Assembly (NCBI GenBank): GCA_965372145.1
Contig: CBDVBE010000002.1
Coordinates: forward strand, 1 to 52,440
Origin: an uncultured bacterium
GTDB lineage: Bacteria; Fibrobacterota; Chitinivibrionia; Chitinivibrionales; JANQEN01
Direction: 5' to 3'
Length of the DNA: 52,440 nucleotides
Under the pieces are notes generated by a model, which worked only from the letters and a program-made list of their open reading frames with translations, did no database searches and was not told where the DNA came from. Each line of letters starts with the position of its first letter. The stretch's first letter is position 1. Below, in pieces: positions 15,301 to 49,974 of the stretch. The position numbers were made by a program, and so were the translations under genes.

Positions 15301-16679
15301 ATGGCGATCTGAGTGATCCGGATGAAGAACCTGCCCTTGATGAAGCACCGGAAGTATCATTACTGGAAGAGGGCGGAGAGCCTGAAAAGTTGTATCCTGA
15401 TTCTGACAGTACGGTCTCTCTGGAAGAAGCGGCGGTCATTGGATTGGAAGAAGAGGAGACTATTGAACCGGAAGAATCATTACCGTCCAATGTGTCACTT
15501 GAAGATGCAATGAGTATGGAAGCGGAAACAGGTATTGACACATTAGCATCACTGCCGGAAGAAGAGACTATAGAAAGTGAACCGGTTGGTGAGTTCTACA
15601 CCGAATCAGGTGACTCAGCTTCTTTGGAAGGTTCTGAAGCAGTGTTAGACAGCGAAATAGAGACGCCGGTTAGTGATAGTGTGGTACAGGAGAGCTTTGC
15701 TGATGACGAATTGACGGTTATAGAGGAAAAAATTTCCGGTGATGAGATGGAATTGGAATCAATTCCGGATGAAGATGTTGATGAGGATGAACAGACAAGT
15801 GAGTTTTATACTGAGTCCGGTGATGCTGCGCCATTTGAGGATACTGAAATTGAACTCGAAAAGGAGCCTCCGGACCGTTTAGAGGAAACAGCCACATATA
15901 ATCTGCCGTCCGATGAAGAAATGACAATTATTGAGGAGGAAATAACCGAAGGGGAAGAGTCGCTAACTGCAATTCCTGATGAAGATACAGATGAAAGTGA
16001 ACCTGTCAGTGAATTTTATACAGAATCAGGGGCAACGGCCGAAACAGATGAAACGGTGGAAGATCGGGAAGGATTGCCGGACCTTGAAACAGTAATTGAA
16101 GAGGAATTCACCGAAGAGGCGGTGCTGGACAGTGTTGATGAAGAAGACTTTTATACCATATCCGGTGATGACACCCCCATACCATTGACAGGTGAAACTA
16201 GTATTACCTCAATTGAAAAAGAAAAGCCCGAGGAAGTTGTATTGTCCGGAGAAGAGGCTTCTTTTGAAAAAATTCAGTCTCCTGATGCGGGGAGATTAAG
16301 AAGGGAAGTTCTGGAACAGAGGGGAAAAATTGCTGAAAAGGCGGATGCAATACCGGACCATGTATTAACACCAACCCTTGCAGATATCTATTTTCAGCAG
16401 GATCAGCCATATCTTGCTGTCCAGATATATAAGCGTCTGCTTGAGCGAGATCCTGATAATGACCGGATCGAACGAAGAATTGCAGAAATTGAGCAGGTGA
16501 TGAAAGAGCGTGAATCGCAGGTAGAACGGCCGGATTCTACGAAGAAAACTACGAGGAAGAAACCGGGACGCAAGAAAAAAACATCGCGAAAGAAAAGCAA
16601 AGATGATTCCCGTCCATTAAAAGGGGTGCGTATTAAAAGGAAAGTTAAAATACGCATTAAAAAGAAGAAGAGTGACTGA
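12396..16679 (+). CDS. Giant hyper-acidic repeat protein with N- and C-terminal TPR modules and a poly-basic tail
   Basis: 1427 aa. The N-terminal ~130 aa and the C-terminal LADIYFQQDQPYLAVQIYKRLLERDPDN are TPR-like. The middle is very rich in Glu/Asp with several repeat families. The tail is KKTTRKKPGRKKKTSRKKSK...KIRIKKKKSD. Confidence 0.8.
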   Translation: MPTPTDMSVGRLEDKLKIKPNSLVFSRLADSYRKSGDVQQAISISVHGLESHPDYVTGRIILGRCYLEQENFNDAIKEFTKICQLDRHNQIAIKMLADIFSKQGMEEKAGNLYNLLFKMDPENPSLEHLITVFKGSNKSNLYEILGIDEGVVEITPAAEAEKQASEEVYDESETPEALEEVGVADEGDIGLPQGDEVVAQIDEVIPGASEDQFESAPEAEPEPAAESDVGELAEPADKQLPDDALALEATEQVPSLEDSIAEDTAIPEISEQVEPELPSVEVAEAADQVPSLEDSIAEDTAIPEISEQVEPESPSVEVAEATDQVPSLEDSIAEDVAIPEVTDQVESAAASPEAAEQVPTLEESIADDIAVSEVSDQVELESEPAEDEVVEPEMESALESATEAPLTKEPSLDDILTPDSSETESEPAVEELQVQPEATPTEDLGDVTEMEAVSEDAPKEAAVVDKQEDGVEAEVIAEMEESAPDVVDQLPEAIDKGVPDADDISVRMDAMFGDEEEGEPESVSAVEELSSETGREALTTTDEISRITEIFEEGDESETGEMTSRMEDMFGDAEELVPPTAVETRAPEPVEELLPPGEMVTAPTEILDKKGLDELRKRVTETPAEELVEEEISVPGEDLTITGEEHTQIVEMAEIEREMAAMPTEIIDPMAPKEEVLAETQDLSDISPAAVHEPTEELMPADFTPEEEAPENIVTDATAVYDRKKIKEMAASESEELSETVEIQMSASEPEELIETVDIPMTEIPTPQTSLSGEEVISRLDEMFPTEGEPEPVHAIGAETRDISIDLPTEEEIDTLGVEGVSGTVEIMPQTAEPVDTTGIVPDTTQAETASYDRERIDEVLTSPETDVYMHDSEESWERQQTESFEMDNVETTGPLSGEEVASRIDEMFSGEDESIATIPDEDIDEHEQVGEFYTESGDTASIDEEVSPLDQEAVETGEDMTTPELTLDGDLSDPDEEPALDEAPEVSLLEEGGEPEKLYPDSDSTVSLEEAAVIGLEEEETIEPEESLPSNVSLEDAMSMEAETGIDTLASLPEEETIESEPVGEFYTESGDSASLEGSEAVLDSEIETPVSDSVVQESFADDELTVIEEKISGDEMELESIPDEDVDEDEQTSEFYTESGDAAPFEDTEIELEKEPPDRLEETATYNLPSDEEMTIIEEEITEGEESLTAIPDEDTDESEPVSEFYTESGATAETDETVEDREGLPDLETVIEEEFTEEAVLDSVDEEDFYTISGDDTPIPLTGETSITSIEKEKPEEVVLSGEEASFEKIQSPDAGRLRREVLEQRGKIAEKADAIPDHVLTPTLADIYFQQDQPYLAVQIYKRLLERDPDNDRIERRIAEIEQVMKERESQVERPDSTKKTTRKKPGRKKKTSRKKSKDDSRPLKGVRIKRKVKIRIKKKKSD
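13149..13472 (+). repeat. Three tandem 108-bp (36-aa) in-frame repeats inside the acidic protein gene
   Basis: Units start at 13149, 13257 and 13365 (QVPSLEDSIAEDTAIPEISEQVEPELPSVEVAEAAD). Units 1 and 2 differ at 3 of 108 nt. Unit 3 diverges in its second half, and a degenerate fourth unit follows to ~13560. Confidence 0.9.
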
Positions 16680-16804
16680 TAACAGATAATTATATCTAAC
16701 GCGGGATAAACACGCAAGTAAGTTCCTTATCAGATTCCTTTCTAAAAAACAAGAAAGCAATCTGTAAGGTACTAATGTAAATAATTTTTTCCTGAGTATA
16801 TCAC

Positions 16805-17878
16805 GTGCCTGAAGTAAGGATAAAAGAAATAAAGAGATACTTAAGAGAACATCATCTGTCCCACATACTCATTTCGGATGCAACTCTGGCTCAGTATATC
16901 AGCGGTTTTGAATCCTCAAATGTTTTTCTGCTTATCTCGGCCCGTAAGAATATTTTATTTACCGATTTCCGTTATCAGAGTGTGGCAGTGCAATTCTGCC
17001 GGAAGAATCCATTGTGGCATTTTGTTGAGATTAAAAAAAGAGGTTACGTTTTCCTCAAGCCATATCTGAAACAGCGGAGTCGTGTTGGTATACAGTCGGA
17101 TTTGATAACCCTTGATGCCTTTGATCAGATAAAGAAACAGCTAAAGGGGATACGATTAATCAAATTGCATGATACACTATCCTTTGTGCCTGCGGTTAAA
17201 TTAAGCCATGAAAGAAAGGCTATGCAGAAAGCCGCAGCAATAGCTGACCGGGCATATACGAAACTTCTTTCGGAGATTAAGATAGGAATGTCGGAAAAGG
17301 AGGTTGCAAAACGTTTGGAGGAGTTATGCCGTGTGTATGGCTCCGAGCAGCCGTCATTTGATACCATTGTACTTTTCGGGGCACGTTCTGCCTTACCGCA
17401 CGGTAAACCTTCAAACCGGCGGTTGAAGTCCGGTGAATGGCTCCTTTTTGATTTTGGCTGTACCATCCAGGGTTATTTCTCCGATATGACAAGAACCGTG
17501 GTGATGGAAAAAGCGAATAAGAAACAAAAATATATTTACGATATCGTTGCTACCGCACAGGAACGGGCAAAAAGAGCTATTCGTCCCGGAGTGGAAGCAT
17601 GCTTTGTTGACAGTAAAGCCCGTTCGGTTATTGAGGAAGCCGGGTACGGAGAATCATTCGGTCATCCGACCGGGCATGGTCTCGGATTGATTATTCATGA
17701 AAAACCAAGTATAAATAAAAATATCAAAACCGTGTTATCTGAAAATATGGTGTTTACCATAGAACCGGGTATCTACATCAACGGCTTCGGAGGGGTTCGC
17801 ATCGAGGATATGATGGTTGTAACTGAAACAGGTGCCCGTTCACTGACAAAATCACCACGTGAACTATTGGAAATTTAA
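16805..17878 (+). CDS. M24-family Xaa-Pro aminopeptidase/dipeptidase
   Basis: HPTGHGLGLIIHE, FTIEPGIY and VRIEDMMVVT metal-ligand motifs, with a creatinase-like N-terminal domain. GTG start. Confidence 0.85.
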   Translation: MPEVRIKEIKRYLREHHLSHILISDATLAQYISGFESSNVFLLISARKNILFTDFRYQSVAVQFCRKNPLWHFVEIKKRGYVFLKPYLKQRSRVGIQSDLITLDAFDQIKKQLKGIRLIKLHDTLSFVPAVKLSHERKAMQKAAAIADRAYTKLLSEIKIGMSEKEVAKRLEELCRVYGSEQPSFDTIVLFGARSALPHGKPSNRRLKSGEWLLFDFGCTIQGYFSDMTRTVVMEKANKKQKYIYDIVATAQERAKRAIRPGVEACFVDSKARSVIEEAGYGESFGHPTGHGLGLIIHEKPSINKNIKTVLSENMVFTIEPGIYINGFGGVRIEDMMVVTETGARSLTKSPRELLEI

Positions 17879-36885: not shown

Positions 36886-37272
36886 TTGCCATTCAGTTAT
36901 TTTAAATCTATCAATAATTTGTTGCCTGGTAAAAAAAAAGGTGAAAACATGTTACCTGAAGATGATACAATAAATAGAATAAAAGAAATTATTGTAAAAT
37001 ATTATAACCCGGATAAAGTTATTTTATTCGGTTCGTATGCTAAAGGGAATGCTGAAATAAAAAGTGATATTGATATACTCATTATTTCTGACAGGGAGAA
37101 GCATTTACCGCGATATAAAAGGGGATTGGATGTTCGTCTGAAGTTATCTGAAGTTGAAAAACCCAAGGATATACTTTTTTATACGCATGAGGATATTAAC
37201 CGCTGGAATGGTGTAAAACATAGCTTTGTCAGCGAAGTGCTCAGGGAAGGAACCGTTCTTTATGAACGATAA
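36886..37272 (+). CDS. Minimal nucleotidyltransferase (MNT) antitoxin-type protein
   Basis: LFGSYAKGNAEIKSDIDILII (GS-X10-DxD). Probable start at ATG 36949, with an upstream AAAGGTGA. Confidence 0.8.
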   Translation: MPFSYFKSINNLLPGKKKGENMLPEDDTINRIKEIIVKYYNPDKVILFGSYAKGNAEIKSDIDILIISDREKHLPRYKRGLDVRLKLSEVEKPKDILFYTHEDINRWNGVKHSFVSEVLREGTVLYER

Positions 37273-37675
37273 GATGAAAGAATATATTAAAGCATGGCTT
37301 AATAAAGCTGATTCGGATTTAAAAAACGCCGAACTGGTTCTTGGTGCAGAAGATGAAAATCTACCCTATGATACTGTATGTTTTCATTGTCAACAAGCGG
37401 TTGAAAAATATCTAAAAGCGTATTGCACCTATCATGACATTAGTTTTCCTTATACACACAATCTGGCTGATCTTGCAGCAAAATTACAGAAAAAAGATAA
37501 AAATATTGAATCTATTAGAAGAGATGTCGAGACATTGACACCCTATGCAGTTGAAATTCGATATCCTGATGACACCTATCTTCCATCAAGGGAAGATGCT
37601 CAAGATGCTTATGAAATAGCAGTACGAATTAAAAAAATAGTAACAACAAAGATTAACTTTGATTTAGCAGATTGA
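37226..37675 (+). CDS. HEPN-domain protein (partner of the MNT)
   Basis: WLNKADSDLKNAE...CFHCQQAVEKYLKAY...YAVEIRYPD is the HEPN pattern. Probable start at 37262 or 37274, overlapping or abutting the MNT stop. Confidence 0.8.
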   Translation: MSAKCSGKEPFFMNDKMKEYIKAWLNKADSDLKNAELVLGAEDENLPYDTVCFHCQQAVEKYLKAYCTYHDISFPYTHNLADLAAKLQKKDKNIESIRRDVETLTPYAVEIRYPDDTYLPSREDAQDAYEIAVRIKKIVTTKINFDLAD

Positions 37676-37736
37676 TACTCTTGAGCTTCTTAATTTAATA
37701 TAAAGGGGTGTGATATAATAATAATGGTTGTTGTTA

Positions 37737-40409
37737 TTATTCCTCCAACCCATCCTCCTCAACATCTTTCGTCAGAACCGCAAGCTTCTGTGCAGCTATT
37801 TTTCTATACACCTCTTTGGGCTCTCTCTTTTCTCCATTAACCGTTAACAGATCTTCAACGGCAATGCCGAAATGTTCCTCATTTTCTTTGAGGAAAGGAT
37901 GAATCAGTTCCCAGTCAGCATCACTCAAGTCTCTGTATACTCCTCCATTAAGTTGTTCTTCAACCAGCTTTCTGTGAGGGTCCCGTACATAAATTGCGCC
38001 GCCGGAAGCAAGGGAGAATATATTTGAGCCTGAATAGGGTGTGTCATATTCTTTAATCGCACCGGTACGTTCGTCAAAACAGATACCATTAAGGATGACA
38101 AATCCGCCGCCCTTCAGTGGATCCCCTGCCATGAACGATTCGGCCAGGTAGTCTAAAGCGGTTCCGTTAATAACCACTTTGGGCTTGCCCACGGCATTGA
38201 TAAGCGGCCGGCCTGCGGCATTACCCATGACAAAAACCGAGCCGCCCTTCGCACCGTACATGAAAGTCTGACCAACATCGCCATGTACAACCAGTTTGCC
38301 GGATTTCATGATCTGGCAAAGCTGGTCCTGTGCGTTGTCATGGACATGGATTTCCATACCGTCAATACCAGATGCAAGATAGTCACCTGAAGAGCCGTAC
38401 ACATCAATTCTGACACCTTCAGTCGCCGGTCCCAGGCCGTTACCGGCAAAACGCTGTCCCCGATACTTGAAAACGATAAATTGTTTCCAGCCAAGATCAA
38501 ACGCTTTTTTAATAAGCACCGCATCGCAGGTATCATCTTGCGGTGTGAATTTTTTCGCATTGATGATTAATGTAGTTTCATTACCTTTAGGAGTATGAAT
38601 AGCATCTCTGGATTCAAAATCGATAAGGCAATAGGTAGAGTCGGCATTATCAGTAATCATGCGTGTGTTTAAAAGAATATCGTCTATAGTTTCCCTGAAA
38701 ATCTGTAAAGCGGAACTTCTTTTAATTGTACCGGTATCATATCTCCTGTCATTAAGCAGCGTTAACGCTTCAATAGCAATTGCTTTACCGGCATCGTTTT
38801 GCAGCGCATATTTTTTCACTGCGTTAATACAGTAACGAAGTGCATTCCCGTTAAATTCTTTTATACTGTTTTTAACATAGTCAAAAATCTTCCTTGCGTT
38901 ATTTTCCTCCAGAGCACTTTCAATCCCGTTTTTCACTGCATCGTCCGGAGTCGCAATCTCAGCAGAAAGGTCACACACAACTCGGTCTTTTACGGTTTCA
39001 ATAACGGTACCGAATTTATCCGTGCAGGTAAGTTTTGATGAGCCGTTTTTGTTTTTCATGGTGAAAACAAACGCACCGCCGTCAGTATAGCTTCCGCCAC
39101 GGGCATTCCAGTATTTATCAGCGATTGGCCTGAATCGGCTGTCTTCCTGTGCCAGTGATTTCAGGGTTGCATCGATCGCCTGTTTCTCGGAGCAGATTAA
39201 TCCGATCTGAACCTCGCCTTCCTGCAGGGCAAAGACCTGGGGCCGCAGCATTGAGGTGTCGGTAATACCGATAAGCTGGAATTCCCTGTTAGCAACATCG
39301 TTGCGTGAAATAATAAAAAACCACGGACCGTCGGGTGATGAGCTTACATGGTGGGTTTGAATTGCCTTGTATATTTTCTGCTTTTCTTCAGGAAGCATGT
39401 CAAAATCCAGCTCGGAAGTCGGCGCCATTGCTTCAATGAGATACTCGAGCGGGTATTTATAGACACGTCCCCACAGGTCCAGAAGGAGAACTGCTTCCTC
39501 TGTATCGGTAAGGAAAAGCGGGTGATAGTTCTTCTGTTCCAGATACTGGCTGACTGAAAAGTAATTGGCAAAGTCTCCGTTGTGTACCAGTGCAGCATTC
39601 ATTGAGCTGAAGGGATGACAGCCGCCCGGATGCCAGACACGCCCCCGTGTGGGATAACGCTGATGTGCAATCCAGGCATGGGCTTTCAGGTCTTCCAGTT
39701 TGTAATACTCAATAACCTTTTCAGCAAAACCCACCACTTTCAGAATCATTATATTTTTCCCGCTGGAGAGAACGAACGCCTGCTTATCTCCCAGCGAAGC
39801 ATAATATTCGGTATTTATTTTATAGCAGTTTTGAGAGATGAGTTCTTCCTCCGCATCTTCTTTCGAGAGCGATTGCAGGTTATTATCTGCAACGAACTGT
39901 GCAAGAGCATCTTCTTTTACACGAATGAAGTAACGGACTACACCAGGAGGCTTAACTTCCAGACCGATGGACCGGTAATCATCGATTCTATCCAGCGTAT
40001 CGGATTTGTCCACAATAAAGTACGGGTTTATAAAGCGGTTTTCAAGATCTTCCTGAACATCATTCTCGATTAAGGCAATATGCAGCATGAAGTCTTCGTC
40101 AAGCATCTGCTGAGAAATACCGAGCTGTTCGGGAATAAATCCCATAGCTGAGATGCCGCCGCCTTTACCGTTACCGCGGTTTCTCATCTGATAGGACGGC
40201 TCAAAGATATTTTTCCCGCTTACCGGAATAGAGCAGATAAACCCGGTAACACCGCATCCTCCCTCTTCTTCAACTTTGTAGTTACCATGAAAAGGAAGGT
40301 GTTCAACAAGCTTTTTTCTCGATTGAATAATTTTTTCTGCGTTATTCATATATATCACCTGATTATTTATTATAGTCGATATGGGAGAGCAGATCCGTTC
40401 TGCCCACAA
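37737..40409 (-). CDS. Glutamate-synthase-like fusion: class-II glutamine amidotransferase domain plus a GXGXG (GltB C-terminal) domain
   Basis: GGCGVTGF nucleophile Cys context and HQRYPTRG in the N-terminal half. The C-terminal half has YGSSGDYLASGIDG, HGDVGQTFMYGAKGG and MGNAAGRPL beta-helix repeats. Probable start at ATG 40349 (an AGGTGA lies upstream). Confidence 0.75.
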   Translation of the reverse strand: MWAERICSPISTIINNQVIYMNNAEKIIQSRKKLVEHLPFHGNYKVEEEGGCGVTGFICSIPVSGKNIFEPSYQMRNRGNGKGGGISAMGFIPEQLGISQQMLDEDFMLHIALIENDVQEDLENRFINPYFIVDKSDTLDRIDDYRSIGLEVKPPGVVRYFIRVKEDALAQFVADNNLQSLSKEDAEEELISQNCYKINTEYYASLGDKQAFVLSSGKNIMILKVVGFAEKVIEYYKLEDLKAHAWIAHQRYPTRGRVWHPGGCHPFSSMNAALVHNGDFANYFSVSQYLEQKNYHPLFLTDTEEAVLLLDLWGRVYKYPLEYLIEAMAPTSELDFDMLPEEKQKIYKAIQTHHVSSSPDGPWFFIISRNDVANREFQLIGITDTSMLRPQVFALQEGEVQIGLICSEKQAIDATLKSLAQEDSRFRPIADKYWNARGGSYTDGGAFVFTMKNKNGSSKLTCTDKFGTVIETVKDRVVCDLSAEIATPDDAVKNGIESALEENNARKIFDYVKNSIKEFNGNALRYCINAVKKYALQNDAGKAIAIEALTLLNDRRYDTGTIKRSSALQIFRETIDDILLNTRMITDNADSTYCLIDFESRDAIHTPKGNETTLIINAKKFTPQDDTCDAVLIKKAFDLGWKQFIVFKYRGQRFAGNGLGPATEGVRIDVYGSSGDYLASGIDGMEIHVHDNAQDQLCQIMKSGKLVVHGDVGQTFMYGAKGGSVFVMGNAAGRPLINAVGKPKVVINGTALDYLAESFMAGDPLKGGGFVILNGICFDERTGAIKEYDTPYSGSNIFSLASGGAIYVRDPHRKLVEEQLNGGVYRDLSDADWELIHPFLKENEEHFGIAVEDLLTVNGEKREPKEVYRKIAAQKLAVLTKDVEEDGLEE

Positions 40410-41844
40410 GTTCAGTTACACTCTTCATGCCGAATTTCTGCAGTATCTTAACCAGTTCATCATGCCAGGCATTGAAAAGATTGGTCAGACGCTGCGATGC
40501 ATATTCCTCATCGTAAAGGGCCGCCAGTTCGGGATCGGTTGAGGCGATACCGCGTGCGCAGCCTCTTCCGGATTCACAGTTACCGCACCGCACACACTCA
40601 AGAGCAACCATCTCAGCCGTGGCAATAACGACACCGTCAGCACCGAGACAGATAGCCTTGGCTACGTCGTGCGCATTACGGATGCCGCCTGATGCAATAA
40701 GGGTAACCGCATCACGGGCGCCCTCTTCCTCAAGGAAGTTGTGAACCTTTGGAATGGCGTATTCTATAGGCATGGCTATATTTTTCTTTGCTATATCAGG
40801 AGCGGCACCGGTTCCGCCATACCCGCCGTCAATATGAATGATATGGGCATTCGCGTAGTACGAACCCACTGCCACCATGTCAACATCATTGGGTGTTGAT
40901 ACTTTCACGGAAACAAGTGCCGTCGGATTCATTTCCCTGATCCAGTCAACGTGTTTTTTATGGTCTTCGATAGAATAAACTGAATGGAATGGAAAGGGCG
41001 AAAAGAGTGAGGTTCCTTTCACCGCTTCACGTATTTTAGAGATAGCCTCAGTATGCTTTTCTCCAAGGAGATGTCCGCCGAGTCCCGGTTTCGCACCCTG
41101 TGCATATTTTAATTCAACTATTCGGACCCTTTTAATTGTCTCTTCACTGACGCCGAACAGGCCGGTAGCAACCTGGGTAATTACATGGTTGTCATAGGGC
41201 TTGAGTGCATCGGGATACCCGCCTTCACCGGTGCAGGTAAAGGTATTCCACGCCTGCGCATTGCGGGCACGGGATACAAGGGTCGTCAGGCTGCAGGAGC
41301 CGAAAGACATACCACCGCAGTATACCGGCAGGCCGATTTCCATATCAGCCCGTCCATCGTTGCGGCGGTTCAGTTTAATAGTTGTAGAAATCTCTTCAGG
41401 ATTAACCTCGGGAGGATTTTGTGGAAATTTAAACCGGAGTTTATCAAATCCACCCTCGGAATTACCAATGTTATAATCGAGATCAATACGTTTAGGTATT
41501 GCACCTGTTTCTGCCATGATCCATGTTGCAGTAATCATATCAGAAGTCCAGCGGTAATCACCAAGAGTCTCATACATTGGATTCCGTTTGAGTTCTAATG
41601 CGTTCTTTGGGCATTTGTTAATGCAGAAGAAATCATTCTTCTCACATTCAAACCCAATACATTTATAACTGACGGGCATTTTTATTTTATTATGTCCATC
41701 AGGACGTTCATGAACACCATACGGACAGAGACGGGCACAGGTTCCACAGTTAATACAGGCATCTGAACGGGTTACCAGGTATTTCGGGAGCAAGTGCCGA
41801 AAACGTGACGGCGCATATTTAACTGTTACAGTTTCTGGTTTCAT
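40363..41844 (-). CDS. Glutamate synthase FMN-binding domain protein with an N-terminal 2x[4Fe-4S] ferredoxin module
   Basis: CINCGTCARLCP and C..KCP clusters, then CGGMSFGS, TGEGG, KYAQGAKPGLGGHLLGEK and ASGGIRNAHDVAKAICLGADGV (GltB domain-2 signatures). Confidence 0.85.
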   Translation of the reverse strand: MKPETVTVKYAPSRFRHLLPKYLVTRSDACINCGTCARLCPYGVHERPDGHNKIKMPVSYKCIGFECEKNDFFCINKCPKNALELKRNPMYETLGDYRWTSDMITATWIMAETGAIPKRIDLDYNIGNSEGGFDKLRFKFPQNPPEVNPEEISTTIKLNRRNDGRADMEIGLPVYCGGMSFGSCSLTTLVSRARNAQAWNTFTCTGEGGYPDALKPYDNHVITQVATGLFGVSEETIKRVRIVELKYAQGAKPGLGGHLLGEKHTEAISKIREAVKGTSLFSPFPFHSVYSIEDHKKHVDWIREMNPTALVSVKVSTPNDVDMVAVGSYYANAHIIHIDGGYGGTGAAPDIAKKNIAMPIEYAIPKVHNFLEEEGARDAVTLIASGGIRNAHDVAKAICLGADGVVIATAEMVALECVRCGNCESGRGCARGIASTDPELAALYDEEYASQRLTNLFNAWHDELVKILQKFGMKSVTELVGRTDLLSHIDYNK

Positions 41845-41847
41845 TTG

Positions 41848-43230
41848 TTATTTTCCAAAAATGGTTGCAAAGGTTTCTTTTTCAAGTGTTTCGTAATAAA
41901 TAGCTCTTCCCATTTCTCCCCGAAGACGTCGAATTTCCCTGATACCCATAGCACCCATAACTTCAAGCAGTTGGGAATGCCAGGCACCGAGAAGGTTGAC
42001 AATTCTCTGGATTCCATCTGTTTGAGATACGTTATTCAAACCTGCCGGTGGGAATAAAAAGTTTTCCTTACTGTCGTGTATCTCATAACCCAGGGCAAGA
42101 AACAGCGGTATATCGAGGGCAATCACATCAGCACCGGAAATTATTGTTTTCGGTAAATGTTCTGCCATGGCTATACCACCTGACCCTATAATTGTTAATT
42201 CATCACGGAGAGTTTGTTTAATGAGTTTGGTATTAATGGATTCAAGTACTTCCTTAATAAATCGTGCCTGGCTGCCGCCTTGCTCTATGCCGTGATGATC
42301 GGTAACGACATGCACTATTTCAGCACCATTTTGAGCAAAGGCTAACACGGTATCTTCTATTGTAGAAGATGCTTCAACCCTGATTGCTACTAATGCATCG
42401 GTTACACTTTTAATTTCTTTCCTGATTGATGCAAAGTTATTGAGTAGTTCATCTGAGTATAGTATTTCAATGACTTTTACTTTTTTCAGAAGGTCAGCAT
42501 GTTTTTCAACCTCAGTGTGCGCCAGTAACGGCATCATATGCTCTACATATTTTTCAATGTCACCTTTGATTTCATCCACCGGAAGGACTACCAATGTATC
42601 TATTTCTTCAGCAGCACCCGTAATCGAGTTCTTTACAATATCTGTAACATCGTAAATAGAACCATCAAAAATTACTGGTATTTGTAAATCAATATTTTTT
42701 GGTATATCTGAGAGTAGTTCGCCATTTTCGCCAAAAGTGAGATGGTCCAGTTTCCTGCCCAGGTCAACATGGGTGCTGATATATTCACGCCCGTGAATCC
42801 CCTCTCTGGTCGGTCGAACGATCTCAGACATATCAGTCCACATGCTGTCAAACCCGGGGCCGGTGAATTTTCCCCGGTACCCGGCACCCGATACCGGTAC
42901 TTTTCCGTTTTCAGCCTGTTTCCATATGCTTAAAATCATATCAGATGTCCAGTAAGCATCACCAAGTGTCTTGAATTCAGGCATAATCGATTTGGTCATG
43001 GCACCACGGGGACACTCCTGGATACAACGGAAACAGTTTTTGCAGAGTGCACAGATCGGGTCTGCCATTTTACGGGGATCCTCTTCGCTGCGTTTATGGG
43101 CTTCGTAAATACAGACTTTTATACACTTCCCGCAGTTAATACACTGCTCCCCACGTTCCAACTTGAACTTGGCAATAAGGTCCAGTTCAAGGATTGTCGG
43201 TTTTACATGAATATGGTATTTCTTTGGCAT
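41848..43230 (-). CDS. Degenerate paralogue of the GltB FMN-domain/ferredoxin protein
   Basis: Same N-terminal Cys clusters and the shared WTSDMI motif, and a C-terminal GSGGIAMAEHLPKTIISGADVIALD. It lacks the GMSFG, GEGG and QGAKPG motifs present in its neighbour. Confidence 0.6.
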   Translation of the reverse strand: MPKKYHIHVKPTILELDLIAKFKLERGEQCINCGKCIKVCIYEAHKRSEEDPRKMADPICALCKNCFRCIQECPRGAMTKSIMPEFKTLGDAYWTSDMILSIWKQAENGKVPVSGAGYRGKFTGPGFDSMWTDMSEIVRPTREGIHGREYISTHVDLGRKLDHLTFGENGELLSDIPKNIDLQIPVIFDGSIYDVTDIVKNSITGAAEEIDTLVVLPVDEIKGDIEKYVEHMMPLLAHTEVEKHADLLKKVKVIEILYSDELLNNFASIRKEIKSVTDALVAIRVEASSTIEDTVLAFAQNGAEIVHVVTDHHGIEQGGSQARFIKEVLESINTKLIKQTLRDELTIIGSGGIAMAEHLPKTIISGADVIALDIPLFLALGYEIHDSKENFLFPPAGLNNVSQTDGIQRIVNLLGAWHSQLLEVMGAMGIREIRRLRGEMGRAIYYETLEKETFATIFGK

Positions 43231-43315
43231 ATTTTTTTATTCTTGTTTCAGGTTCGTTTACATTTATTCTTTTTCAACTTCCAACGGCAGAATTCTGACC
43301 GCTGACTACTATCTT

Positions 43316-45181
43316 TCAGCCGTTTCGCTCAACCATATCCCAGTATTCATCGCTTTCATCAACTTTCTTAAGGAAATCCTCTATTAATTCAGTCGGACGA
43401 CCATATTTCTTTTCAATTTCCGCTTCAAGGGTCTCCCACAATTCAACGAGTCCAAGATTAACCTGACAGATCTCTTCACAGGCTTTACAGTGCATACACA
43501 TGAAAATCTTTTCAGCTTCTTCTTTGGAAACCGGTTTGCCGGCCATATATTTTTTCGCGAATTCAAGTTTACCCTTCGGTGTAACACCTTCATCACCGGT
43601 AACCAGGTATGCCGGGCACACTGCAAGGCAGCTCCCGCACTTAGCACAGGCATAGGCCTTGAGTTTCTTATCAAGTGTATCGGCGCTGCCGACGTTCTTG
43701 TTTTTGCCAAGAAAAATGGTTGCCAGAGGGCCAAGGAACCATGAAAAGGCAATAAGCAGACTCATATTGAAATTCATGATTGCAGGCTGCATAAACAGTG
43801 CCGGAATATTCATGAATTTGGATTTGACCGCGAAAAATTTACCGGGGTTCATGATACCATTTGGATCGACCTGTTTTTTATATGCTTTCAGTTCAGCGAG
43901 TCTTTTACTGTCAAAGAGATAGTTGACAAAAGGCGCGAACCAGATACCGGAGCCATAGGGCCTGGCGCCGCATGATACAGCGACTTTAGTCAGGATCATC
44001 ATCATCGGCAGATTGATCAGGTATTTCAGCTTCCGTGAATCACACAGGAACTCAACGGAGACCATAGCGATTGTATCATTAATAATGTATGCATAACTGC
44101 TGATATCAATGCCGAACCTTTTGCCCATTTTCCCGGCTTTAGTGATAAATTCATTTACTCTTTTGATCGGAATAATAATTTCGCACGCAAGAATTGTCGG
44201 TCCGAGCCGCTTGGATTTCATACCGAAGAGGCGCTGGTTCCAGAGATAGCTTGCCACATGCTGCGGTGCCTCTTTGAGTTTGACATCGCTTAATGATAAA
44301 TATGACAGGAACGCGTCATCTTCCTCTTTTGTCGGCAGTATAAACAGGACACCGCTCTTATTCTCGAAGGTATCAGCATGCATCAGTATGTTCATTTCAT
44401 GAAGCGTTTCCGCGTCAACGAAACGGATGACATCAGGCTGAATCTCTTTTGTTTTGATTTTATCACTGATGATCTTATCAATAAAATTGAAAGCCGTTAA
44501 CGGGTCTTCAAAATAGACCAGTCGGGGATGGAACTCCTGCTGATACTCTTTAAGTTTAAGCGTGACTTCAGTAAGAATACCAAACTGACCTTCAGAGCTG
44601 ATAAGATTCTTGAATTCGGGGTCATCATGGGCTATCTCTTTAAGTTCACCATTGGGGAACATAACGTTAATAGAGACAACCTGTTCAGAGACATGGCCAT
44701 ATTTAAAATTATTGATACCGTATCCACCTGTCATAAGCCAACCTGCAACGGTTGAGAACTTGCTTGAAGGATAGGTCATGAGACAAAGGCCCTCTTGCTT
44801 GGCGATGATGTCAATGTCGCTCCAGCGGGCACCGGCCTGCACAGTAATGGTTTTATTGCCTTTGTTAAGTTCGATAACTTCTCTGAACATTGCCAGATCA
44901 ATTACAATACCGCCATTTGTCGGGATAACACCACCAAATCCGGAGGAGGCGGTACCGCGAGGAATGACCGGTATCTTTTTGTCATTGGCAAAAGTGAGTA
45001 CTTTCTTTATGTCTTCAACACTTTTCGGCTGAACAGCCATGTCGGGAACAATGTTAAAGAAGGTACCACTAAAGATTGGTGGAATATCACCAATATCATG
45101 ACTGTAGATCATCTTTTCATATGTATCATCAATGACCTTTGTGTCGCCGGCAACTTTTTTAAATTCTTCTGCTATTTTCAT
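43316..45181 (-). CDS. FAD-linked oxidase (GlcD-like) fused to TM segments and a C-terminal 2x[4Fe-4S] (GlcF/GlpC-like) module
   Basis: FAD_binding_4 pattern (PVIPRGTASSGFGG...TVAGWLMTGGYG), hydrophobic segments near residue 470, then CAKCGSCLAVCP and CMHCKACEEIC. Confidence 0.75.
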   Translation of the reverse strand: MKIAEEFKKVAGDTKVIDDTYEKMIYSHDIGDIPPIFSGTFFNIVPDMAVQPKSVEDIKKVLTFANDKKIPVIPRGTASSGFGGVIPTNGGIVIDLAMFREVIELNKGNKTITVQAGARWSDIDIIAKQEGLCLMTYPSSKFSTVAGWLMTGGYGINNFKYGHVSEQVVSINVMFPNGELKEIAHDDPEFKNLISSEGQFGILTEVTLKLKEYQQEFHPRLVYFEDPLTAFNFIDKIISDKIKTKEIQPDVIRFVDAETLHEMNILMHADTFENKSGVLFILPTKEEDDAFLSYLSLSDVKLKEAPQHVASYLWNQRLFGMKSKRLGPTILACEIIIPIKRVNEFITKAGKMGKRFGIDISSYAYIINDTIAMVSVEFLCDSRKLKYLINLPMMMILTKVAVSCGARPYGSGIWFAPFVNYLFDSKRLAELKAYKKQVDPNGIMNPGKFFAVKSKFMNIPALFMQPAIMNFNMSLLIAFSWFLGPLATIFLGKNKNVGSADTLDKKLKAYACAKCGSCLAVCPAYLVTGDEGVTPKGKLEFAKKYMAGKPVSKEEAEKIFMCMHCKACEEICQVNLGLVELWETLEAEIEKKYGRPTELIEDFLKKVDESDEYWDMVERNG

Positions 45182-45326
45182 AATGATCTATGATAGTGAA
45201 AAAGTCATTTTTTGGTTTCAGCGGGAAAACACCTGTAAGTTCTCCCCACTTATTATTTGCGTGATAAAGGGCAGCTTGAAAGTTGATTACGATCAAGCAA
45301 CCCATTTTATATTTGAGGTTAGAACT

Positions 45327-47177
45327 CTATTTTACTGTAACTGATTTAGCCAGATTTTTTGGTTTGTCAGGATCCAAACCATTATAATCAGAAGCAAAGT
45401 AGGCCATAATCTGTAACGGAAAGACAAAAGGTACTGCTGACATAGCAATTGAGTACTTATCGGTTTCAATAGGAACACGAAGTGTATAGTCAGAAATCTC
45501 AGTTACCTGTGTATCAGAATCTGCAACAACTGAAATTATAGTACCACCACGGCTTTTCATTTCCATGATGTTACCAATAAGTCTGTCATAGGTTTCATCC
45601 GGAGGAGCAACAAATACAACCGGGAAACCATCTTCGATGAGAGCAATTGGTCCGTGCTTTGATTCACCGGCAGAATAGGCTTCAGCATGGTTATAGGATA
45701 TTTCCTTCAGTTTAAGAGCACCTTCACTCGCAGCAGCCATTGAGAGGCCACGGGCAAGGAAGTAGAAATTTGGCTTTTTAGCCAGAATTTCCGCAACTTC
45801 TTTAATCTTATCTTCACCTTCAAGTATAGCATCACAAACTTTTGAACTATTATCAAGTGCAGCTTTATATTTTTCAATTTCTTCGGGAGCCATCTCACCT
45901 TTAAGTTCTGCAATACGAAGAGCAACAACTGAAAGAGCAGTAACCTGTGTGCAGTATGCTTTCTGGCTTGCAACAGCAACTTCAGGACCGGCAGTAGTAA
46001 TAATCGTATGATCTGAGTAGCGTGTAAGTGAAGAACCTACAACATTAACAACAGAACAAACCTTTGCTCCGTGTTTTTCACGTGCAAAACGTACAGCTTC
46101 AATAGTATCAGCTGTTTCACCGGATTGTGATACCGCAATAACACAGGAATTTTTCGGCAGGCGTGGCAGTTGGTCAGTAAATTCAGAGCAGAGAACACCC
46201 TCGATATAAGGGCCTCCGAATTTTGTTATCTGGAATTTCCCCGCAAGACAGGCGTAAAAAGCCGTACCAGCAGCCGTGATGTACACATGATCCGCATCCA
46301 TAATGGTTCTCGCAAAGGCTTCGATATCATCCTGCGGTGCATGAACCTGTTCTTTAACCTTTCTCGGTACTTCATGAAGTTCCTTGTGCATGAACCATTT
46401 GTACTCTTTGCCGTCGAGTGATTTTTGGGCAGCGTCAATTGACCACTGGACAGTAATCGGATCACGTTCACGTTTTTCACCAGTGACAACGTCAAAAATC
46501 TCGACCGAACCGGCATAGAGAACCGCAATTTCATCATCGTCAAGGATATATGCCTGACGGGTTAACGGTAAAAATGCAGGGATATCTGAGCCGCAATAGG
46601 TTGTCTCGCCAGGGGTAATACCGATGGTAAGCGGTGATTCCTTGCGGGCAACGAGCATATAATCGGGTATATCCGCGTGGCATACGACAATACCGTAAGC
46701 GCCTTTACACTCTTTAACCGTTTCCATGACCGCTTCTCTAAGGTCCATGCCTTTGTCCATATGCTCGCCGATAAGGTGAGGGAAGACTTCCGTATCAGTA
46801 TCGGATTTGAACTCATGACCGCGTTCGGACAACTCTTTGCGTAATTGCTGAAAATTCTCAAGAATGCCGTTATGAACCACTGCTATTTTCCCACTGCCAT
46901 CCAAATGGGGGTGGGAGTTTTTTGCTACAGGAGGGCCATGAGTTGCCCAACGAGTGTGGCCCACACCAAAGGAGCCTTCCATTGAATCAAACCAGCCGTC
47001 CTTATTAATATCTGCAATACGACCTTTCTCTTTTCTACATTCAATTCTGCCATTATTTACCAATGCTATACCGGCAGAATCATAACCGCGATATTCCAAT
47101 CTCTGCAAACCTTCACGGATGAGTTTTGCTACGGGAACATCCTGCTTTTTTGTGATTAGGCCAAAGATTCCACACAT
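45327..47177 (-). CDS. glmS: Glutamine--fructose-6-phosphate aminotransferase
   Basis: MCGIFG N-terminal nucleophile, two SIS domains, C-terminal ...KNLAKSVTVK. 616 aa. Confidence 0.95.
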   Translation of the reverse strand: MCGIFGLITKKQDVPVAKLIREGLQRLEYRGYDSAGIALVNNGRIECRKEKGRIADINKDGWFDSMEGSFGVGHTRWATHGPPVAKNSHPHLDGSGKIAVVHNGILENFQQLRKELSERGHEFKSDTDTEVFPHLIGEHMDKGMDLREAVMETVKECKGAYGIVVCHADIPDYMLVARKESPLTIGITPGETTYCGSDIPAFLPLTRQAYILDDDEIAVLYAGSVEIFDVVTGEKRERDPITVQWSIDAAQKSLDGKEYKWFMHKELHEVPRKVKEQVHAPQDDIEAFARTIMDADHVYITAAGTAFYACLAGKFQITKFGGPYIEGVLCSEFTDQLPRLPKNSCVIAVSQSGETADTIEAVRFAREKHGAKVCSVVNVVGSSLTRYSDHTIITTAGPEVAVASQKAYCTQVTALSVVALRIAELKGEMAPEEIEKYKAALDNSSKVCDAILEGEDKIKEVAEILAKKPNFYFLARGLSMAAASEGALKLKEISYNHAEAYSAGESKHGPIALIEDGFPVVFVAPPDETYDRLIGNIMEMKSRGGTIISVVADSDTQVTEISDYTLRVPIETDKYSIAMSAVPFVFPLQIMAYFASDYNGLDPDKPKNLAKSVTVK

Positions 47178-47199
47178 AAGTCCTATTTCCTCTCCTTGA

Positions 47200-47274
47200 G
47201 TACCTTAGAAATAATTTTTTGCCTCTTCTTACCCTGAAGGACACACGTGGCAGGAAATTATTTCGTTAAGGTAC
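47200..47274 (-). promoter_or_regulatory. Long hairpin in the glmS 5' leader, ending 5 nt before the SD
   Basis: Minus strand: GTACCTTA-AC-GAAATAATT ... AATTATTTC-TAAGGTAC (8 + 9 bp with a 2-nt bulge) enclosing ~39 nt. It is followed by TCAAGGAGAGGAAATAGGACTTATG. Confidence 0.55.
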
Positions 47275-47327
47275 TAATCCAGTTTATCTGGGTTAGGGTG
47301 TGTTATTATGATTAATTATTCGGTTTC

Positions 47328-47355
47328 GAAATTCGTAATTTGAAATTCGTAATTT
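47328..47355. repeat. Perfect tandem direct repeat, 2 x 14 nt (GAAATTCGTAATTT)
   Basis: Copies at 47328-47341 and 47342-47355, in the divergent glmS / MFS intergenic region. Confidence 0.85.
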
Positions 47356-47486
47356 GTGAGAAAGCCCATCAAAATAAGTTATGTTGAGCGAAAATTCAAA
47401 GTTTTAAATATTCCGGACGGGCCGTAAGGGAGAGTATATTTTTATTTACTACGGATGTAGTTACTACGGTATTTTCCCTATTTTCA

Positions 47487-48740
47487 GTGGTTAAAACAAT
47501 GATTTTCCGGTTTTCTCTCTATGGTTTCCTGAAAAATCAGCGCTACTTTGAGCCCTTTCTTCTGCTGGCGTTTCTCCAAAAGGGTTTATCCTTCGCCATG
47601 ATTGGCGTTCTTATCGGATTTCGTGAGATCTGTATAAATATCATGGAAATTCCTACCGGTGCAGTTGCAGATGTTGTCGGCCGCCGTAAATCCATGATCC
47701 TGTCATTTGTATCATATAGCATTTCATTTCTCATTTTTGGTGTATCCCGGACCTTGTGGATGCTGTTTGCTGCCATGTTTTTTTTCTCCGTGGGGGAGGC
47801 CTTTCGGACCGGGACCCATAAAGCCATCATTTTTGACTGGCTTGCCGGGCAGAAAAGGGAGCACGAAAAAACCAAGGTATACGGCTTTACCCGGTCATGG
47901 AGCAAGCTCGGTTCAGCATTCAGTGTGATTATAGCTGGAATACTGGTATTTGTATCCAATGATTATTCCATGATTTTTCTGTTATGTATCATTCCCTGTG
48001 TGATAAATATTATTAATTTTTTAACCTACCCGGGATATCTTGACGGCCCCCGGAACGAGAGTACCGGTATTACTTCTATAATAAAAACACTGTTCTCCTC
48101 TCTCGCAAAAAGCGTCAAATCGAGCCGGTTACGCAGGTTATTGTTTGAATCCATGGGGTATGAAGGGCTGTTTAAAACAAGCAAGGATTATCTGCAGCCC
48201 ATACTGCAATCCACTGCGCTTGCACTGCCGGTATTATTGCATTTCAGCGGGCAGCAGCGAACAGCCCTGTTGGTTGGTGCGGTCTATTTCCTGCTGCATG
48301 TTCTGAGCAGCATCGCATCACGTAATGCCGACGTGCTGGTGAAAAAAACAGGCAATGAATCAAGAGCAGCACACAGGTTATGGATTTTTGATCTGCTGGT
48401 TTTCATCATGCTTTTCGCAGGGATACTCGCCGGATATTCCTGGGTGGTTATCGGTGCGTTTATTTTGCTTGCTGTTCTGCAGAATTTCTGGAGGCCCATT
48501 CTTATCAGCCGGTTTGCCACACTTTCCGATCCCGCGCAGACTGCGACTGTCCTGAGTATAGAATCACAGTCCAAGTCACTCTTTGTCGCAGTTTTCGCCC
48601 CGCTGCTGGGATGGGCAATTGATGCAGTCACGAGGGTAAACACGGGTTGGCAGTTTCTGCCAATTGCTGTCCTGGGGATTGTGATATCGGTTATTATGCT
48701 GGTAACTGCAGGTGGTGTGAATAAAAACCATGCTGGTTAA
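47487..48740 (+). CDS. MFS-type transporter
   Basis: ~12 TM helices. The loop motif VADVVGRRKSMI after TM2 is the MFS signature. Start is GTG 47487 or ATG 47499. Confidence 0.7.
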   Translation: MVKTMIFRFSLYGFLKNQRYFEPFLLLAFLQKGLSFAMIGVLIGFREICINIMEIPTGAVADVVGRRKSMILSFVSYSISFLIFGVSRTLWMLFAAMFFFSVGEAFRTGTHKAIIFDWLAGQKREHEKTKVYGFTRSWSKLGSAFSVIIAGILVFVSNDYSMIFLLCIIPCVINIINFLTYPGYLDGPRNESTGITSIIKTLFSSLAKSVKSSRLRRLLFESMGYEGLFKTSKDYLQPILQSTALALPVLLHFSGQQRTALLVGAVYFLLHVLSSIASRNADVLVKKTGNESRAAHRLWIFDLLVFIMLFAGILAGYSWVVIGAFILLAVLQNFWRPILISRFATLSDPAQTATVLSIESQSKSLFVAVFAPLLGWAIDAVTRVNTGWQFLPIAVLGIVISVIMLVTAGGVNKNHAG

Positions 48741-48801: not shown

Positions 48802-49974
48802 TCACCTTGTTATTACAAGCTTTTTAGAAAAGATTCTATTCCTACCTTTTACGACCAGGAAATAGATGCCTGCCGTATTATTCTTAAAATCATAGAGGTA
48901 ACTCTTCGTGTCTCCTCTAAGCCGCACCTCTTTTATAGTCCTTCCCGTTCCGGTTACAATTGACAGTTTTGAACCAGGTGGTACATTCCCGTTCAGATAA
49001 ATCTTACACTGTGATGAGCCATTTGTTGAGGTAACAGTAAGTATATCTTTGTTTACTAGTAGATTTTTACTATCATTCTGGTCACTAATTGGAGTCGGGT
49101 GTTCTTTAAAGAGGCTGTCTTTTACTATTTCGTCACGTATTGAAAAGTCAACCCACATGATGCCGATGGGCTGATCCGGATTTGCCACACCTTCAGCAAG
49201 CGCATCACCGATTTCTTTCAACGGGTTGTCAAGCAGACTCCACCATTTTTTGTCACTCTGGTAGCCAACCTGGTACATGACAGTGCTATTTGTAAAGGTA
49301 TCAGCCCAGGTCGCCAAAGGCTCTACCAGGCTGTCAAGCACATCAACCCCCTGGCCGTCATTGACAAAGATCAGGTCACCCCGGTATGTGGGTGGCATCC
49401 ACCGCCAGTCCCAGTGTTTGACAAATAATGTATAGTCCTGATTGATTGATTTCAGATGCGCTTCCCAGGACTCAGCTTCAGCGTCAGTTGCTTTTTTACC
49501 GGTGCCGGGATTGCTTTTATATAGGTACCATTCCACGTCAACGCCGAAACCAACAACACACTTATGATGCCCATACTGCTCCATTACCAAATCCATTAAT
49601 GTATTAACATCAGCATTACCCGGTTCAACCTGCAGAAATACTTTTACGCCGATATTGTCAAAATAGCTAAGAAACTCCTCATGTCTATCGTTGCCCCAGA
49701 AATCAATATTCGGGTATTGATTGCCATCACTGGGAAACTCCAGCGAGCATTTTATTCGGGGATCATCAATGGCGCCAACTATCCACACGCCGGTCGGCAC
49801 CGAATTGTCATATTGATCACACATATTCAGAAAAATATTCCCCCATTCTTTCGGGGTCGGAAATGGTTTAACCCCATAGTGTGATGAGCGGGCTCCAGCA
49901 TATTTTACAACACCGGCTTGTACCACTGCGGCAATCAGTACCGCTGCAATAAGAATTATTTTTTTACTAATCAT
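48802..49974 (-). CDS. Secreted protein with a putative glycoside-hydrolase-like TIM-barrel and a T9SS-type C-terminal sorting domain
   Basis: Signal peptide. The C-terminal ...TAGIYFLVVKGRNRIFSKKLVITR resembles Por/T9SS CTDs. The catalytic-domain assignment is weak (GFGVDVEW, FVKHWDW). Confidence 0.45.
   Translation of the reverse strand: MISKKIILIAAVLIAAVVQAGVVKYAGARSSHYGVKPFPTPKEWGNIFLNMCDQYDNSVPTGVWIVGAIDDPRIKCSLEFPSDGNQYPNIDFWGNDRHEEFLSYFDNIGVKVFLQVEPGNADVNTLMDLVMEQYGHHKCVVGFGVDVEWYLYKSNPGTGKKATDAEAESWEAHLKSINQDYTLFVKHWDWRWMPPTYRGDLIFVNDGQGVDVLDSLVEPLATWADTFTNSTVMYQVGYQSDKKWWSLLDNPLKEIGDALAEGVANPDQPIGIMWVDFSIRDEIVKDSLFKEHPTPISDQNDSKNLLVNKDILTVTSTNGSSQCKIYLNGNVPPGSKLSIVTGTGRTIKEVRLRGDTKSYLYDFKNNTAGIYFLVVKGRNRIFSKKLVITR

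Follow-up and report, generated by a model that had tools for sequence, protein, structure and literature searches.

The system described here is a cluster of four genes in a 52,440-nucleotide stretch (the window) of contig CBDVBE010000002.1, from an uncultured Fibrobacterota bacterium whose 6.3-Mb metagenome-assembled genome (MAG) is 88% complete. The four open reading frames (ORFs), named A, B, C, and D, occupy positions 37737 to 45181 of the minus strand and run in the same direction, with gaps of 85 nucleotides (nt) between A and B, 3 nt between B and C, and 13 nt between C and D. This layout bears out a preliminary description of the DNA, which had called the genes co-directional and tightly spaced. 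We assigned domains by Pfam and NCBIfam profile searches (Table 1). The D frame is open from a TTG codon at 40409, but homologues begin at the ATG at 40349, so the latter is most likely the start codon. Domain content, conservation, and gene context make it likely that A-B-C-D encodes a single glutamate synthase for nitrogen assimilation, with A as the electron-input subunit.

Table 1. Positions within the window of the four genes, of selected parts of their products, and of the upstream glmS gene
Feature	Coordinates	Strand	Length in amino acids (aa)	Description
Gene A	45181-43316	-	621	PF01565 FAD_binding_4, 115 bits; PF02913 FAD-oxidase_C, 34 bits; PF13183 Fer4_8, 43 bits
Gene B	43230-41848	-	460	Pfam: ferredoxin-type matches and a weak FMN_dh match only
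Gene C	41844-40363	-	493	N-terminal Fer4; PF01645 Glu_synthase, 304 bits
Gene D	40349-37737	-	870 (from ATG 40349)	PF13522 GATase_6, 28.1 bits; PF01493 GXGXG, 51.9 bits
Hydrophobic linker of A, residues 456-492	43706-43816	-		Family Kyte-Doolittle profile and AlphaFold2 (AF2) model
Fe-S domain of A, residues ~509-598	43388-43657	-		Two CxxCxxCxxxC(P/Q) motifs; Fer4_8 at residues 509-575
Codon of candidate catalytic Cys32 of D	40254-40256	-		Within the invariant GGCGVxGF motif
GXGXG domain of D	37947-38456	-		Sole PF01493 match in the genome (56.7 bits in the whole-genome search)
glmS	45327-47177	-	616	NF001484, 676 bits; context, outside the conserved module

The product of gene C aligns to the flavin mononucleotide (FMN) domain of the A. 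brasilense glutamate synthase (GltS) alpha subunit (residues 884 to 1171; E value of 1e-50). The QGAKPG.GG motif is retained, as are the conserved Arg after it, at the 2-oxoglutarate site, and all three Cys ligands of the cluster; these active-site motifs are invariant across a family of 17 homologues. A fourth invariant Cys extends the barrel motif to CxxCxxCx5C, which may hold a 3Fe or a 4Fe cluster. Together with the N-terminal ferredoxin domain, these features point to an intact glutamate synthase FMN/2-oxoglutarate subunit, in agreement with the earlier reading of C as a bona fide ferredoxin-FMN GltB domain.

D combines in one chain a putative N-terminal nucleophile (Ntn) class II amidotransferase domain and a GXGXG beta-helix, as had also been proposed, with a helical middle region of about 200 residues between them. 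The motifs EEEGGCGVxGF, HQRYPTxGR, and HNGDFANY are invariant in 23 D sequences and presumably correspond to the Cys1, HxRxxT, and HNG motifs of PurF/GlmS-type Ntn amidotransferases. The Pfam assignment is likewise to this PurF/GlmS-like type (PF13522) and not to the GltB-type amidotransferase model PF00310, which had no match anywhere in the source genome. The GltB central domain (PF04898) was not detected in D. Identity among D proteins is 58 to 68% between phyla and 86% to the D of a Fibrobacterota sister MAG. A D profile gave marginal matches only when compared with Protein Data Bank (PDB) sequences (E values of 4e-5 to 3e-3), and the only significant Foldseek matches of the poor D model were the glutamate synthase large chains 7mfm_G (8e-5) and 6s6s_A (9e-4).

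B is a paralogue of C, based on hhalign comparison (probability of 100%, E value of 2e-61, 26% identity). B of the source genome has no match to PF01645, and its match to the canonical GltB central domain is too weak to equate the two (hhalign probability of 44%, E value of 2e-4). All eight Cys residues of its N-terminal 2x[4Fe-4S] ferredoxin domain are invariant. Compared with C, the B barrel has a gap of about 45 positions over the region from QGAKPGxGG to SIEDH and lacks the barrel Cys cluster; the SGGI...GAD loop is retained. Because the QGAKPG region and the barrel cysteines are lost, B is predicted to be noncatalytic, and it probably acts as an Fe-S wire or scaffold. B had been described as a degenerate GltB-FMN paralogue with a ferredoxin module, and this description stands.

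Subunit A consists of a VAO/PCMH-type flavin adenine dinucleotide (FAD) domain with a D-lactate dehydrogenase-like cap (residues ~1 to 450), a hydrophobic linker, and a C-terminal 2x[4Fe-4S] domain. NCBIfam searches returned partial matches to GlcD, GlcF, LdhH, and HdrC. Among proteins of solved structure, A is closest in sequence to LctD (7qh2_C; E value of 1e-28) and D-lactate dehydrogenases (D-LDH). The AF2 model of A, with a predicted local distance difference test (pLDDT) score of 78, matched D-LDH 9qit, AGPS 5ae3, mLDHD 8jdx, and LctD best in Foldseek, with template modeling (TM) scores of ~0.8 on the target. The D-LDH-like fold, comprising FAD_binding_4 and the FAD-oxidase_C cap, is therefore present. 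The Fe-S domain is of the HdrC/GlcF-N-terminal type. GlcF and HdrBC have Fer4_8 followed by CCG; A has Fer4_8, and no CCG domain was found in it by Pfam. The cluster cysteines of A (C512, C515, C518, C522, C562, C565, C568, and C572) show no variation, distant fused relatives included.

The catalytic metal site of the D-LDH family is missing from A. The metal motifs HxGDGNxH and EHG of 7qh2_C and of the D-lactate dehydrogenase 9qgz_A align to YAYIINDTIA and PYG, with substitutions at Y365...A372/L373 and P408-Y409. The family consensus at these positions is Y..I.....A and PYG in 28 family members from several phyla and in 14 more, and the loss extends to deep fused relatives with 25 to 38% identity to A. 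Because the His/His/Glu-His metal site is replaced, A is predicted to be unable to use the known D-2-hydroxy-acid mechanism. Eight residues (W314, R317, D381, R383, P408, Y409, G412, and W414) are invariant in the A family down to 25% identity. R317 is the Arg of the WxxR motif, which we take to bind the substrate carboxylate in D-LDH-type enzymes. A thus appears to retain a constrained, remodeled pocket that includes the WxxR Arg. Separately, a congeneric genome (G027) contains a second, distant A-like gene (contig C103:15230-16945; 28% identity over residues 14 to 588), which is broken by two TGA codons and one TAA codon and is either a pseudogene or requires recoding.

To place A relative to the core, we searched one genome per species with the D alignment. 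This yielded 353 genomes with a D relative, from which 80 loci (numbered with the prefix L) were kept, and their gene content and order were read by tblastn with A to D. The identical order A-B-C-D occurs in 48 loci, where D identity is at least 62%; these are all of the loci in this high-identity group with sufficient upstream DNA, and they span at least four phyla. Five further loci fall on the same branch of the D tree, and their contigs end upstream of B or C. The remaining 27, with D identity of 58 to 62%, have no A. Carriers of A-B-C-D belong to the Fibrobacterota, Chloroflexota (Dehalococcoidales and others), Thermodesulfobacteriota (Smithellaceae, Syntrophaceae, Syntrophorhabdaceae, and Desulfomonilia), and Bacillota (Syntrophomonadaceae); besides the present Fibrobacterota bacterium, they include many strictly anaerobic, often syntrophic, bacteria. 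Maximum-likelihood analysis of D groups the A-bearing loci in one clade with a single state change (SH-like approximate likelihood ratio test [SH-aLRT] value of 100); within it, the loci of the source genome and of its sister MAG are basal.

Natural fusions connect A physically to the other subunits. A search for longer relatives of A found A+B proteins of 1138 to 1309 aa and longer fusions of 2529 and 2864 to 2883 aa, in which Pfam domains from A, C, and D follow one another in a single chain in the order of the genes: FAD_binding_4, Fer4_8, Fer4, Glu_synthase, GATase_6, and GXGXG. B has no Pfam model of its own; a ferredoxin domain and spare length between A and C suggest that it is present in the longest fusions as well. 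The strict synteny, the single D-tree clade, and the A+B and A+B+C+D fusions support A as a dedicated, co-inherited partner of B-C-D that takes the place of GltD. Contact between A and B is likely as well, given the synteny and the fusions. The preliminary description had proposed this substitution, and it had also considered that the FAD-oxidase gene might not be conserved with the gltB-like genes elsewhere, which the 48 loci argue against.

A is not a universal part of the operon. The 27 A-less loci mostly retain B-C-D, and two of them, from Desantisbacteria, have C-D only. In 15 of the 27, a gene for an MvhD/FlpD-like protein of 134 to 140 aa lies just ahead of B. Genes adjoining the operon in this clade, next to D, encode HdrC-like and CCG (HdrB-like) proteins or MetV/MetF (methylene-tetrahydrofolate reductase); the MvhD, Hdr, or MetVF type of flank occurs at loci L062, L063, L065-L070, L074, L078, and L084-L089. 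Separate HdrC-like and CCG proteins were found only beside some operons of this sister clade, and the Fe-S domain of A has only generic similarity to the HdrC-like protein found there (E value of 0.001). The A-less form looks like an Hdr-type electron supply for the glutamate synthase core. Since the sister clade carries an MvhD-like gene instead of A, the B-C-D core appears to be modular in its electron supply, with a swappable input module. Another split arrangement was seen in two other genomes of the same order (G111, contig C8:11448-14470; G167, contig C168:50443-52368), where a gene for a B-like paralogue of 467 to 482 aa is followed by one for a C-like protein of 525 to 536 aa; no A homologue was found in either with the A query.

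The surroundings of the operon point to nitrogen metabolism. Recurrent neighbor families, obtained by clustering every ORF from the 80 loci and then annotated, include glutamine synthetase I (20 loci) and III (15 loci), carA (27 loci) and carB (12 loci), the Amt ammonium transporter (15 loci), PII (10 loci), NrpR (7 loci), a GlnR-like regulator (10 loci), and a GAF/sigma-54 activator (19 loci). PF01645 is present in 179 of 201 sampled Fibrobacterota genomes, almost always as a GltB of ~1500 aa. In the source genome and in congener G027 (94% complete), it occurs only in the 494-aa split form, together with A-B-C-D. A genome of the same family and another genus has gltB (1509 aa) followed by an unannotated gene of 476 aa. 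This distribution fits displacement of gltBD by the four-gene operon in this Fibrobacterota genus. Two one-contig MAG chromosomes, one from Smithellaceae and one from Syntrophus, likewise have B and C as their only significant PF01645 matches. The nitrogen-related neighbors, combined with the absence of a ~1500-aa GltB from the genus, make a role in nitrogen assimilation well supported by sequence.

No GltD homologue (Fer4_20 plus Pyr_redox_2) lies in or beside the operon. The earlier statement that GltD is missing holds for the operon and for any partner of these genes, but not for the genome, which contains two Fer4_20/Pyr_redox_2 modules. Both are NuoF-GltD fusions, on contigs C32 and C295, and neither is linked to A-B-C-D. 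The C295 fusion adjoins a formate dehydrogenase-like molybdoenzyme, and the C32 fusion clusters with a Fer2/Fer4 protein, a 536-aa protein with weak PF01645 similarity, and a glutamine synthetase-like gene. The only stand-alone GltD-like gene of the congener is read as NfnB because it adjoins an NfnA-like gene. A genome-wide search also returned no PF00310 and no GXGXG domain other than that of D.

Contig C32 carries two similar four-gene clusters 8 kb apart (positions 145-5852 and 10318-17296 of its stretch L006). The products of each are a NuoF-like protein, a Fer2/Fer4 protein, a glutamine synthetase-like protein scoring below the GlnA cut-off, and a 536-aa protein that matches PF01645 only weakly and in part and has no NCBIfam match; in the second cluster, the NuoF-like protein is fused to the GltD-like module (1051 aa). 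These clusters may form a second, NADH-linked glutamate/glutamine system of uncertain function. Two other genomes also have ORFs with weak PF01645 similarity (555 to 595 aa), about 9 kb away from the operon.

Other features of the window and its relatives concern the genes around the operon. The glmS gene lies directly upstream of A, across a 145-nt spacer, as first described; a functional link to the operon is not borne out, as the adjacency is, among the loci examined, found only in this Fibrobacterota genus and glmS is not among the recurrent neighbors of the 80 loci. The nearest public relative, an uncultured Fibrobacterota MAG, has the identical synteny glmS-A-B-C-D-SBP. In the window, a nucleotidyltransferase (Polbeta/NTP_transf_2) and HEPN pair (36886-37675, plus strand) lies between D and the SBP_bac_5 gene. 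It looks like an insertion in the source genome, because only 96 nt separate D from the SBP gene in the syntenic sister MAG, leaving no space for the pair. A 390-aa protein with a T9SS type A sorting (Por_Secre_tail) domain is encoded at 48802-49974 (minus strand) and fits an FCB-group (Fibrobacterota) origin. In 23 of the 80 loci we found a gene for a ~862-aa PPDK_N protein (phosphoenolpyruvate/pyruvate-utilizing, ATP-binding), which is absent from the window. It lies directly past D in ~20 loci, mostly Smithellaceae and Syntrophaceae (L012, L019-L022, L027, L028, L031, L032, L036, L038, L041, L042, L047, L049-L051, L054, L061, and L075), often followed by a divergent GAF/sigma-54 activator.

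We scanned positions 37300 to 47500 for promoters and terminators, and counts were no higher than in shuffled sequence. The sigma-54 -24/-12 pattern, with up to two mismatches, had 28 matches compared with 22.4 expected. None of these was in the glmS-A spacer or upstream of glmS, so sigma-54 control cannot be claimed for the operon in the source genome. Among public sequencing runs, no RNA run was listed as a match; the matching DNA runs came from sediment, marine, and cold-seep metagenomes and contained a fraction of the sampled words no higher than 0.41.

Glutamate synthase converts L-glutamine, 2-oxoglutarate, and two electrons to two molecules of L-glutamate. In the enzyme proposed here, D would cleave glutamine at its Ntn Cys after loss of a leader of ~31 residues, and the ammonia would be channeled from D to C, with the fused GXGXG beta-helix in the structural role known from GltB. 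C would form 2-iminoglutarate from 2-oxoglutarate and ammonia and reduce it at the FMN, as its conserved active-site motifs suggest. Electrons would reach the FMN from the 2x[4Fe-4S] domain of A through those of B and C and then the barrel cluster of C. A would be a functional analogue, not a homologue, of GltD, with an FAD that takes two electrons from a donor and passes them singly to the clusters.

For the donor of A, we rank a small anionic hydride donor bound in the remodeled pocket first, a protein donor second, and known 2-hydroxy acids and quinol low. The small hydride donor is our tentative first choice, a guess based on the loss of the metal site, which also disfavors the known D-2-hydroxy-acid donors, combined with conservation of the WxxR Arg and of the set R317, D381, R383, Y409, and W414. 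A protein such as Etf, ferredoxin, or flavodoxin is a possible but less likely donor.

The alternative that survives best takes the protein donor further: A would have no small-molecule substrate, and its FAD would be a two-electron/one-electron converter or a bifurcating or confurcating center fed by a protein partner (Etf, ferredoxin, flavodoxin, or a hydrogenase or formate dehydrogenase module). In its favor, LctD, the best solved relative of A, has EtfAB as its partner in a complex (7qh2). The catalytic metal site of A is gone, and in the sister clade the place of A is taken by an MvhD-like adaptor for electron transfer only, with genes of HdrC/HdrB-like or MetV/MetF type adjoining the operon. 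Syntrophs rely on Etf and Hdr-type systems, and many carriers of A-B-C-D are syntrophs. Set against these points, no etf, hydrogenase, or formate dehydrogenase (fdh) gene is recurrent beside A-B-C-D, and the cap residues R317, D381, R383, Y409, and W414 are conserved without exception down to 25% identity, a degree of constraint beyond what a docking surface should need. We regard a substrate-free A as unlikely.

A working D-2-hydroxy-acid dehydrogenase that drives glutamate synthesis with D-lactate, glycolate, or D-2-hydroxyglutarate is a much weaker alternative. The nearest relatives of A by sequence and fold are indeed LctD, D-lactate dehydrogenases, and GlcD-type enzymes, R317 is invariant (its carboxylate role being presumed), and redox potentials would permit such a reaction. 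However, the two His residues and the Glu-His of the catalytic metal are replaced in every A sequence examined, and no transporter or pathway gene for a 2-hydroxy acid recurs in the neighborhood of the loci. The proposal in the preliminary description that A oxidizes a substrate such as D-lactate or glycolate thus finds little favor, since the metal motifs are lost across the whole A family. D-2-Hydroxyglutarate, which as a donor would also yield 2-oxoglutarate, was considered and rejected because the metal site is missing.

We give equally little credence to the operon as a glutamine- or ammonia-dependent reductase of some other kind, with another oxo-acid or an imine as its substrate. Such a role could account for the great divergence of D from GltB in the PDB profile comparison, for the unexplained extra subunit B, and for A as an unprecedented partner. 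It is at odds with the GltS active-site motifs and the 304-bit PF01645 match of C, with the neighboring glutamine synthetase, Amt, PII, and nitrogen regulator genes, and with the replacement of gltB in the genus and the status of the operon as the sole candidate in the one-contig Smithellaceae and Syntrophus chromosomes.

The preliminary description had also assigned transmembrane segments to A and suggested a membrane electron carrier. The FAD and Fe-S domains it named are present; the membrane segments are not convincing. A conserved hydrophobic stretch does separate the two domains, but its best 19-residue Kyte-Doolittle mean, averaged over the family, is a borderline 1.67. P466, P481, and G484 are conserved, most sequences have internal Lys or Arg, and the AF2 model places two helices of only 12 to 13 residues there (466-478 and 480-491). 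The linker is thus moderately hydrophobic and, based on sequence and model, seems to lack the length and apolar character expected of a clear membrane span. No membrane features were seen in B, C, or D, and menaquinol is, by our own estimate, a thermodynamically poor donor for the glutamate synthase reaction. That A anchors the enzyme and draws on the quinol pool or another membrane carrier for electrons is accordingly highly improbable. Least probable is that a remote GltD-type protein (the C32 or C295 NuoF-GltD) is the true reductase of B-C-D and A is accessory or regulatory: the genome does hold two GltD-like modules, but both are NuoF fused, in conserved clusters of their own and unlinked to A-B-C-D, and other organisms have A in fusions with B, C, and D.

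Several observations weigh against a single glutamate synthase built from A to D. The amidotransferase assignment of D rests on the conserved motifs and on a PF13522 score barely over the cut-off of 27, and the AF2 model of D has a pLDDT of 64, with values below 50 over much of the amidotransferase part. The candidate catalytic Cys of D is internal, at residue 32 behind the leader; because Ntn amidotransferases require a free N-terminal Cys, this leader would have to be removed. The order of clusters from A to B to C is deduced from gene and fusion order only. A Syntrophomonadaceae chromosome has canonical GltB in addition to A-B-C-D, so the two are not strictly exclusive. The source genome has a glutamate dehydrogenase gene (451 aa, contig C241) and with it a second route to glutamate; as the MAG is incomplete, absences from it are provisional. 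Full-text literature searches found no study of the A-B-C-D enzyme and only F420-dependent split forms, and its function is read here from sequence.

Glutamate synthase is an entry point of nitrogen into biomass, and relatives of D occur in 353 species-level genomes. In the Smithellaceae and Syntrophus chromosomes, the operon is the only glutamate synthase candidate. Metabolic models of methanogenic-consortium syntrophs, Dehalococcoidia, and this Fibrobacterota lineage now give the wrong cofactor or none. A is a case of a dehydrogenase fold without its catalytic metal yet under strong constraint, and B may be one of a dead paralogue retained as an Fe-S wire. A bolder reading, which we consider doubtful at present, is that A-B-C-D is a new class of glutamate synthase, in which the D-lactate dehydrogenase fold has been turned to metal-free chemistry on an unrecognized donor or to flavin-based electron confurcation involving two flavins and about seven Fe-S clusters. 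If so, nitrogen assimilation of energy-starved syntrophs and Dehalococcoidia would be tied to a catabolic electron carrier and not to NAD(P)H or free ferredoxin, and the sister form with MvhD would solve the same problem in a second, Hdr-type way.

To our knowledge, the biochemically characterized glutamate synthases are NAD(P)H- and ferredoxin-dependent forms only. Compared with GltB/GltD (A. brasilense 1ea0, 2vdc, and 6s6s; B. subtilis 7mfm), we expect the same reaction chemistry of A-B-C-D, with C corresponding to the FMN domain and D supplying both the putative Ntn amidotransferase and the GXGXG beta-helix. Like GltD, A would be a flavin and 2x[4Fe-4S] input that feeds the FMN through Fe-S clusters. 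The four domains of GltB are here split over C and D in another order, and the central domain is missing as such. Both B and C have a 2x[4Fe-4S] ferredoxin domain at the N terminus, the barrel motif of C has its fourth Cys, and B is an extra, apparently dead paralogue subunit. A itself is unrelated to GltD, having a VAO/PCMH-fold FAD domain and no NAD(P)H-binding Rossmann domain.

The archaeal-type split synthase, of which MJ1350/MJ1351/MJ1349 of Methanocaldococcus jannaschii is presumably an example, shares the ~500-aa ferredoxin-FMN protein (C) and the lack of GltD in the operon. The ferredoxin domain of C and the split core agree with the earlier reading of the operon as a split, archaeal-type glutamate synthase-like one. 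The strict archaeal pattern of three separate proteins is not found, however, as amidotransferase and GXGXG are fused in D, at all 80 loci and here in an 870-aa protein with a helical insert. A and B are two further subunits, always present in the A-B-C-D form.

A shares the FAD_binding_4 plus FAD-oxidase_C fold (TM score of ~0.8) with LctD, of the lactate dehydrogenase-EtfAB complex (7qh2), and with GlcD/GlcF; at its C terminus, it is similar to the ferredoxin portion of GlcF, HdrC, and LdhH. It differs from LctD and GlcD in lacking the catalytic His/His/Glu-His metal site, from GlcF and HdrB in lacking CCG domains, and from LctD and GlcD/GlcF in being dedicated to a glutamate synthase core.

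The closest parallel in design is with the putative FGltS(I) and FGltS(II) of methanogens and anaerobic methanotrophic archaea (ANME), which combine a split GltS core with an F420-binding FrhB/FdhB/Fsr-N homologue and were inferred from gene context, awaiting purification (PMC3448663, PMC3087415, PMC9012536). They follow the same logic as A-B-C-D, with another flavin/Fe-S electron-retrieving subunit in place of GltD. In contrast to that F420-binding FrhB type, A is a D-lactate dehydrogenase-fold FAD protein with an HdrC-like domain, and it occurs mainly in bacteria without known F420 use for glutamate synthesis. The comparison suggests one catalytic core with exchangeable electron-input modules: A, MvhD, FrhB-like proteins, or GltD.

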